From: Escherichia coli
GTDB lineage: Bacteria; Pseudomonadota; Gammaproteobacteria; Enterobacterales; Enterobacteriaceae
Assembly (NCBI RefSeq): GCF_011045215.1
Contig: NZ_CP049201.1
Length of the DNA stretch: 64,000 bases
Direction: 5' to 3' (one strand)
Below are positions 62,601 through 64,000 of this stretch, piece after piece. A program made the position numbers and the translations under genes. The notes beneath the pieces are model-generated. The model did no database searches. It saw nothing but the letters and a program-made list of their open reading frames with translations, and was not told the origin of the DNA. Position 1 is the first letter of the stretch. Each line of letters opens with the position of its first letter.

Positions 62601-64000
62601 ACCCGCAGCGTGTTCGCCATCGAACCGTCTGCCACTGAGCCGTCCTGCGTCACCACCAGCTCAGCGATCTGCGCCGTCCTGACATCCGCGATAAACGTCA
62701 CATCCCGGCTCTGACTGCTGCTGTTGATACTGGCGGTGACTGTACTGGTTCCGGCGGTCTGGCTGGTGACTGAGAGCTCCACCGTGCCGTCCGGCCCTGT
62801 GATGACAGTCGAAGCGACCATTGCACTGTTGTCTGCCGTCACGCTGACCGTCTGTCCGCCAAGCGTATTACCGTTAGCATCGGTGACCCTCACCCGCAGC
62901 ATGTTCGCCATTGCGCCGTCTGCCACTACGCCGTCCTTAATGACCACCAGATCAGCGATCTGCGCCGTCCTGACATCGGCGATAAATGTCACGTCCCGGC
63001 TCAGGCTGCTGTTGTTGATGGATGCAGTGACAGTACTGATCCCCGCCGTCTGGCTGGTGACACTTATCTCCACCGTACCGTCCGGCTCTGTGATGACCGT
63101 CGGGGCAACCGTTGCACCGTTGCCTGCCAACACGCTGACCGTCTGTCCGGCAAGCTCATTACCGAACGCATCGGTCACCCTCACCCGCAGCGTGTTCGCC
63201 ATCGCACCGTCCGCCTCTGAACCATCCTTAATAACCACCAGCCGCGATCTGCGCCGTCCTGACATCCGCAATAAACGTCACATCCCGGCTCAGGCTGCTG
63301 CTGTTGATGCTGGCAGTGACAGTACTGATCCCCGCCGTCTGGCTGGTGACACTGATTTCCACCGTGCCGTCTGGTTCTGTGGTGACCGCCGGAGACACCG
63401 TTGCGCCGTTGTCCGCCAACACGCTGACCGTCTGCCCGGCAAGCGCATTGCCGAACGCATCGGTCACCCTCGCCCGCAGCGTGTTCGCCGTCGAACCGTC
63501 CGCCTCTGAACCATCCTTAATGACCACCAGATCCGCGATCTGCGCCGTCCTGATATCGGCGATAAACATCACGTCCCGGCTCAGGCTGCTGTTGTTGATG
63601 CTGGCAGTGACCACACTGGTGCCCGCCGTCTGGCTGGTGACACTGATTTCCACCGTGCCGTCCGGGCCTGTGATGACCGTCGGAGACACCGTTGCGCCGT
63701 TGTCCGCCAACACGCTGACCGTCTGCCCGCCCAGCGCATTACCGAACGCATCCGTCACCCTCACCCGCAGCGTGTTCGCCGTCGAACCGTCTGCCACTGA
63801 GCCGTCCTTAATGACCTCCAGATCAGCGATCTGCGCCGTCCTGATATCGGCGATAAACATCACGCTCTGGCTCAGGCTGCTGTTGTTGATGCTGGCAGTG
63901 ACCACACTGGTGCCCGCCGTCTGGCTGGTGACAGAGATCTCCACCGTGCCATCCGGCTCTGTGATCACCGTCGGGGCAGTCGTTGCGCCGTTGTCCGCCA
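59678..64000 (-). CDS. air: Intimin/invasin-family adhesin with tandem bacterial Ig-like repeats and C-terminal lectin-like domain (Air-like); 5' end off-window; frame disrupted near 63240
   Basis: ORFs 63228-63968 and 59678-63271 are one gene split by a 2-bp deletion; repeated about 97-aa units such as DVRTAQIADLVVIKDGSEADG...VTDAFGN...TVEISVTSQTAG; C-terminal domain with Cys pair. Confidence 0.8.
61790..64000. repeat. Tandem 291-bp coding repeats (Ig-like domain units) within the adhesin gene
   Basis: Motif GCGATCTGCGCCGTCC recurs at 62082, 62373, 62664, 62955, 63244, 63535, 63826: period 291 bp except one 289-bp unit. Confidence 0.9.

Follow-up and report, generated by a model that had tools for sequence, protein, structure and literature searches.

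A frameshift in the repeat array of an Escherichia coli air adhesin gene is probably the scar of an out-of-register nine-unit deletion

Toward the end of a 64,000-nucleotide stretch of Escherichia coli DNA (the whole of which we call the window), a giant adhesin gene built of Ig-like repeats is read as two overlapping open reading frames (ORFs) rather than one. Which gene is this, what kind of event split it, and does the split belong to the strain or to its assembly? An earlier note on this DNA had attributed it to a 2-bp deletion inside one repeat and had listed a pseudogene, a truncated N-terminal product and an assembly error as possible readings, all of which are sensible alternatives that we weigh here against comparisons with relatives.

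We first describe the array and the two ORFs, which lie on the minus strand. Units are numbered after the 20-unit allele of the intact relative PapM-32-1, which we used in our identity matrix, and L019 denotes the locus of the closest relative.

61820..64000, minus strand: tandem array of 291-bp (97-aa Big_1) units, as far as the window reaches; Tandem Repeats Finder, 7.5 copies with 86% matches
63228..64000, minus strand: 5'-side air ORF, comprising the last 161 nt of unit 4, units 5 and 6, five aberrant codons (AAGGY) and TAA at 63230-63228; from the translation and from 100% identity to units 4-6 of PapM-32-1 and L019
59678..63271, minus strand: 3'-side air ORF, comprising units 16-20 (five Big_1), further Ig-like domains and an invasin D4-D5-like tip; from the ORF call, Pfam and the 1CWV match

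Along the coding strand the anchors are spaced 291, 291, 289 and 291 nt apart, in agreement with the earlier observation of a single 289-bp unit among 291-bp units. The coding strand reads ATCGCGGCTGGTGGTTATTAAGG at 63241-63243 (wider context CAGATCGCGGCTGGTGGTTATTAAGG), and the upstream frame translates as ...DVTFIADVRTAQIAAGGY* and ends at the TAA at 63230-63228, the AQIAAGGY-stop that had been described. The second frame is open from a TTG at 63271 to a stop at 59678 (1,197 codons), reading ...RLVVIKDGSEADG... and continuing ...LVVIKDGSEADG..., such that the two ORFs share 44 nt, 63228-63271. The gene itself runs on past window position 64000. The 3'-side ORF encodes neither a signal peptide nor a beta-barrel, and no convincing ribosome-binding site precedes its candidate start codons. 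Long ORFs are also present on the opposite (plus) strand of the array, at 61794-62180, 62184-62714 and 62724-63509, and recur with the repeat period; these are most likely by-products of repetitive, G+C-rich coding sequence and not genes.

By sequence and by setting, the split gene is air (also known as eaeX or iatC), the gene for the EilA-associated inverse autotransporter adhesin of E. coli. In megablast searches, 752 of 5,426 complete E. coli genomes matched the window gene, the matches being annotated as air ("inverse autotransporter adhesin EaeX/Air") or iatC, and eilA adjoined air/iatC in every matched genome. Window positions 59600-63242 are 100% identical to the annotated air and the end of eilA in strain A16, in which an intact air of 11,409 bp (3,802 aa) has eilA and nepI as its neighbours. 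Collinearity with A16 extends over window positions 48163 to 64000, and the two share the gene order selC 3' remnant, setC, yicL, nlpA, yicS, SycD-like chaperone, YopB/SseC-like and IpaD/SipD-like eip genes, eilA and air. In the window, the eip genes and eilA beside the broken air are intact ORFs.

57931..59628, plus strand: eilA, HilA-family regulator, convergent with air; from the identical annotated A16 protein

The eip genes and eaeX/air have been reported to be under EilA control (PMC4210603), and IatC is surface displayed and promotes biofilm formation when overexpressed (Goh et al. 2019, PMC6714894).

The domain content of the two ORFs points to the same family. Pfam identified five Big_1 domains (PF02369, E 1e-19 to 1e-20), Invasin_D3-like Ig domains and Invasin_D4 (E=5e-12) in the 3' ORF, and its last 340 aa matched residues 295-461 (D4-D5) of Yersinia invasin (PDB 1CWV) in a phmmer search (E=1.1e-16); by both methods, an invasin/intimin-like D4-D5 (C-type lectin-like) C-terminal cap is present. 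The fragment of the 5' ORF consists of the same 97-aa units, and the tandem Big_1 passenger that is a feature of Air/EaeX/IatC is thus in place, in keeping with the earlier description of a giant Ig-like-repeat adhesin. As the window stops short of the 5' end of the gene, we looked to the relative PapM-32-1, in which the IAT_beta domain (PF11924) occupies residues 149-423 (E=5e-108). With the NCBIfam model NF040978 (Ve_IatC_Nterm), the score was 366 bits where the curated cut-off is 2,400; the model spans the N-terminal 1,065 positions, which are mostly beyond the window. The window gene therefore resembles Air/EaeX of EAEC 042, which is the IatC of E. coli SMS-3-5 and a type Ve adhesin encoded beside eilA, in its locus (between the eip genes/eilA and, in relatives, nepI), in 3.6 kb of 100% identity to an annotated air, and in having the same Big_1 array and invasin-like tip.

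We next asked whether the short unit occurs elsewhere. In every compared genome the two bases are present at the equivalent boundary, a 1001-nt query aligning with 1003-nt subjects and a 76-nt query with 78 nt. The 289-bp unit is no chance feature. None of the 5,426 complete genomes carries a 289-bp unit with an intact frame, the comparison with orthologues that the earlier note had proposed, and the frameshift is thus private to the window sequence.

The alignment with A16 indicated that more than two bases are involved. From ~57,000 to 63,242 there are zero differences, followed by the 2-nt gap and then by ~13% divergence (100 differences in 740 nt); because the divergence begins abruptly right after the gap, the indel sits at a mosaic boundary. 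A16 was rejected as the parent: it is 100% identical 3' of the site, but no A16 unit is more than 91% identical to the 5' side. A unit-by-unit identity matrix with the PapM-32-1 allele gave the following correspondence.

Window units W0p, W1 and W2 (5' of the site): PapM-32-1 units 4, 5 and 6, at 100% each
Window units W3-W7 (3' of the site): PapM-32-1 units 16-20, at 100, 100, 99, 100 and 100%

Judged by these identities, unit 6 of a 20-unit allele is joined directly to unit 16 in the window, with the apparent loss of units 7-15 and a further 2 bp, and the PapM-32-1/L019 allele family accounts for both sides of the junction. The spacing of the flanks in relatives is consistent with this: in all seven loci holding both flanks (L012, L014, L015, L016, L017, L019 and L020) they are exactly 2,621 nt apart, or 9 x 291 + 2, with 0-5 mismatches in the 759 nt of the left flank and 1-9 in the 3,564 nt of the right flank. 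Removal of positions 16865-19485 of the L019 locus from the L019 allele yields the window exactly.

63241..63243, minus strand: deletion junction, at which 2,621 bp of the intact relatives are absent, the breakpoint falling between 63243 and 63242 or between 63242 and 63241; from the comparison with L019

The ambiguity of the breakpoint is a single nucleotide (a coding-strand G), indices 758 and 759 being the sole possible left breakpoints. Of the 2-bp deletion inside one repeat that had been proposed, the 2-bp shortfall stands, while its reading as a simple loss from an otherwise normal repeat gives way to the junction of a 2,621-bp deletion.

The two parental boundaries, compared in register, place this junction within a short tract of perfect identity.

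63234..63262, minus strand: crossover tract TCAGGACGGCGCAGATCGCGG^CTGGTGGT, 29 nt in the window and 31 nt in the parent; from the in-register comparison of both parental boundaries

The 31-nt parental tract, TCAGGACGGCGCAGATCGCGGAGCTGGTGGT, occurs without a single difference at both the unit 6/7 and the unit 15/16 boundary; it codes for the conserved inter-domain sequence RTAQIAELVV. A GAG codon has lost AG/GA at the join, and the site reads GCGG^CTGG compared with GCGGAGCTGG in the parent, with no dinucleotide repeat and 1 nt of microhomology. The parental sequence that the earlier note had expected, GCGGATCTGGTGG (with GATC), was inferred from neighbouring units and was wrong; the orthologous units read GCGGAGCTGGTGG (IAELVV), with GAGC, and the missing bases are AG/GA and not AT.

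These features suggest a scenario in which a 20-unit allele, as found in the closest relatives, lost 2,621 bp between repeats. Homology between the repeats would have guided the event, as both endpoints fall in the same 31-nt identical tract and their near-register position points to homology-guided pairing of the two boundaries. Inter-repeat recombination, single-strand annealing and template switching are candidate routes, each with an error at the join; a join that is off register by 2 nt would shift the frame and bring in a stop 5 codons later. We consider it probable that the lesion is such a real, private, out-of-frame inter-repeat deletion.

A point against this single-event reading is that RecA-type recombination within a 31-nt identity is expected to give a precise, in-frame deletion of 2,619 bp. 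One could also suppose two real events, namely a precise 2,619-bp recombination that produced an 11-unit allele and a later, independent 2-bp deletion at the same boundary. In-frame changes of unit number are common in air, which would make the first step an ordinary one, but the second hit must then fall by chance in the same 31-nt interval of an 8.8-kb gene (about 0.4%), and the 5,426 complete genomes, the compared loci and the metagenome contigs yielded no in-frame unit 6-unit 16 allele. For the loci and contigs, a 47-mer probe proved non-specific, as it occurs at another unit boundary too, and was set aside; a specific 82-mer of the in-frame join was absent from the compared loci and the metagenome contigs. 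Two separate events are thus very improbable, and we return to a single out-of-register deletion.

We also searched for the junction itself. It is in none of the 5,426 complete E. coli genomes, the best matches being 97.4% over 76 nt (the difference being the 2-nt gap itself) and 96.3% over 1,001 nt, and the exact junction 35-mer had no match in species-representative genome contigs, metagenome contigs or the 23 compared loci. The one 76-nt look-alike of the in-frame unit 6-unit 16 boundary, in strain 100416, was dismissed as a coincidence in a different allele that diverges 40 nt to either side. At the protein level, exact-product matches were absent for four possible starts of the 3' ORF, and the predicted 1,745-aa 5' product (completed with the PapM-32-1 N-terminus) had no exact match among recorded proteins.

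A junction that none of the searched genomes, metagenome contigs or called proteins shares is also what an assembly or consensus artefact would produce. The air of this strain could be intact, with 20 units or an in-frame 11, if the array had been collapsed or mis-joined and 2 bp dropped at the join. The lesion lies in a 291-bp tandem array whose units are 80-92% identical to each other, a classic site of mis-assembly, and mis-assembly of inverse autotransporter genes has been cautioned against (Goh et al., PMC6714894). A further point in favor of an artefact is that homologous recombination does not normally yield a -2 join within 31 nt of perfect homology. Several observations argue against it, however. 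The short-read drafts L014, L017, L019 and L020 resolve all 20 units, which indicates that the array can be assembled, and long reads easily span 2.6 kb. A k-mer graph that jumped via the shared 31-mer would join in register and cannot invent a 2-bp loss. Read from the sequence, the parental site GGAGCTGG contains no homopolymer and no Dam (GATC) or Dcm (CCWGG) motif. Lastly, 4 SNPs separate L019 from the window across 48163-63241 (15 kb), with no further indel, which argues that the consensus is not indel-prone. We regard an artefact as unlikely, if still the most serious competitor of a real inter-repeat deletion.

This 15-kb comparison is the one available for judging assembly quality, because no complete E. 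coli genome comes closer than about 91-96% over the island that precedes it. Window positions 1-48186 form this ~48-kb island, which complete E. coli genomes match only in patches, at about 90-96%, and which ends at a 24-nt copy of the tRNA-Sec (selC) 3' end, at 48163-48186. As there is no complete tRNA in the window, this copy marks a selC-inserted genomic island, the left end and integrase of which are outside the window. Within it, 13568-25096 (minus strand) holds a 3,078-aa ORF (13568-22804) and a 579-aa ORF (23357-25096) that match regions annotated in other strains as a hemagglutinin-repeat two-partner-secretion exoprotein and a ShlB/FhaC/HecB transporter, and nearby sequence matches an annotated AAA-domain protein, a 3'-5' exonuclease, a GIY-YIG nuclease and the IS21-like ISEc12; the region may be a TPS/CDI-type system together with defence genes. 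A CbtA-toxin, DUF5983 and DUF4942 gene set occupies the right end of the island (46403-48027). The same set precedes setC in the drafts L014 and L021 and is not in L019, the closest air relative, which has no selC island.

Two of the seven loci with both flanks, L014 and L015, had themselves come under suspicion of disruption, as neither has an air gene call. This was rejected: the air frame is open to the end of each locus, and the apparent ORF boundary is a locus-end artefact. No air product is recorded for these two NCBI assemblies (13300-21350 of L014 and L015), although the frame is open over 8 kb of each locus; a disruption farther upstream, or a pseudogene flag on air, may be the reason.

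Could the two frames instead be rejoined, either by a programmed +1/-2 ribosomal frameshift that restores full-length Air or by reversible switching at a phase-variable contingency locus? A shift of +1 or -2 would be required to rejoin them. In favor of this idea, the two ORFs share 44 nt, and surface adhesin genes figure commonly among phase-variable genes. The overlap, GCG GCT GGT GGT TAT TAA G, nevertheless has no slippery heptamer, homopolymer or short tandem repeat, and the frameshift is absent from every orthologue compared, all of which are single-frame, arguing against a conserved recoding signal. Simple sequence repeat (SSR) phase variation of adhesin genes likewise involves a frameshift in a surface adhesin gene, but the window site has no repeat tract, the relatives show no length polymorphism and all carry the same full-length sequence at such boundaries, and the change is irreversible, as a 2,621-bp deletion cannot revert, by simple slippage or otherwise. 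The earlier judgment that slipped-strand phase variation is unlikely at a site without a homopolymer is borne out, and we give recoding or switching almost no weight beside an irreversible deletion between repeats.

What would such a deletion leave of the product? The relatives are intact (3,802 aa) and collinear, and the window stops 5 codons past the junction, as is expected of a frameshift pseudogene; in functional terms, air here is predicted to be a pseudogene or a severely truncated allele. Compared with Air/EaeX/IatC, the window allele is interrupted, with nine units and 2 bp gone and the frame lost after unit 6, and its tip can no longer belong to the exported protein. Assuming a 5' end as intact as that of the relatives, the first ORF would encode ~1,745 aa (a length inferred from a relative), with a signal peptide, LysM, beta-barrel, proximal Ig-like domains and units 1-6. 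With five Big_1 units, the distal Ig-like domains and the invasin-like lectin tip missing, it would amount to a tip-less stalk. Inverse autotransporters carry the barrel at the N-terminus, with the passenger threaded out subsequently, so that a C-terminally truncated passenger, and with it the truncated Air stalk, should still be displayed on the surface. The 3' 3.6 kb would go untranslated or, at most, give a non-exportable and non-functional cytoplasmic polypeptide after re-initiation.

Both the resizing of the array and the loss of the gene have counterparts in other strains. Air products of 2,444, 2,546, 2,638, 3,515, 3,710, 3,802 and 3,904 aa are found in other strains, and air/iatC arrays counted elsewhere have 6, 8 and 20 units of 291 bp with intact frames; no repeat-number variation in IatC was evident among the few genomes available at the time of an earlier study (Goh et al. 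2019, PMC6714894). Array size thus ranges widely (L021, L023 and L007 being among the variable loci), from 6 to 20 or more units, although some of the short alleles derive from short-read drafts and may reflect collapse during assembly. The window event resembles this copy-number variation in that the same array changes by whole 291-bp units between strains; it differs in being 2 nt off register, and it destroys the frame rather than resizing the stalk.

Widespread attrition of ETT2 has been described (PMC4210603), and independent inactivating lesions of air/iatC are present in the complete genomes of three further strains: in DSM 103246 (L024), a 290-bp unit splits air and an IS2 insertion lies near its 3' end; in D8 (L025), a stop codon falls in the N-terminal third of air; and in strain 100416 (L026), an IS1-associated deletion took the 3' end of air together with the eip genes and eilA. 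In contrast to these point indel, nonsense and IS events, the lesion in the window is an out-of-register deletion between repeats. The window allele is accordingly one more disrupted member of a locus known to be decaying, its sole distinction being that the frameshift scars an out-of-register nine-unit deletion.

A bolder reading would be that imprecise, near-register recombination between the diverged 291-bp units is a recurrent and irreversible route from giant Ig-repeat inverse autotransporters to shorter, displayed, tip-less stalks in E. coli lineages and that the allele reflects selected loss or change and not neutral decay. If so, selection might act, for example, through escape from a host receptor or from immunity, with a biofilm or spacer role being kept. 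We regard this as a long shot.

For annotation, the two ORFs should be recorded as one disrupted air/eaeX/iatC gene, and a PCR or BLAST match to either end of the gene should not score the strain as Air-positive. Behind an apparently small frameshift in a tandem-repeat gene there can lie a far larger deletion between repeats, which only unit-by-unit comparison with relatives reveals. Taken together, these data open no new biological question; what they would contribute is one further independent lesion in the eip/ETT2-associated genes of E. coli, whose decay is already known.
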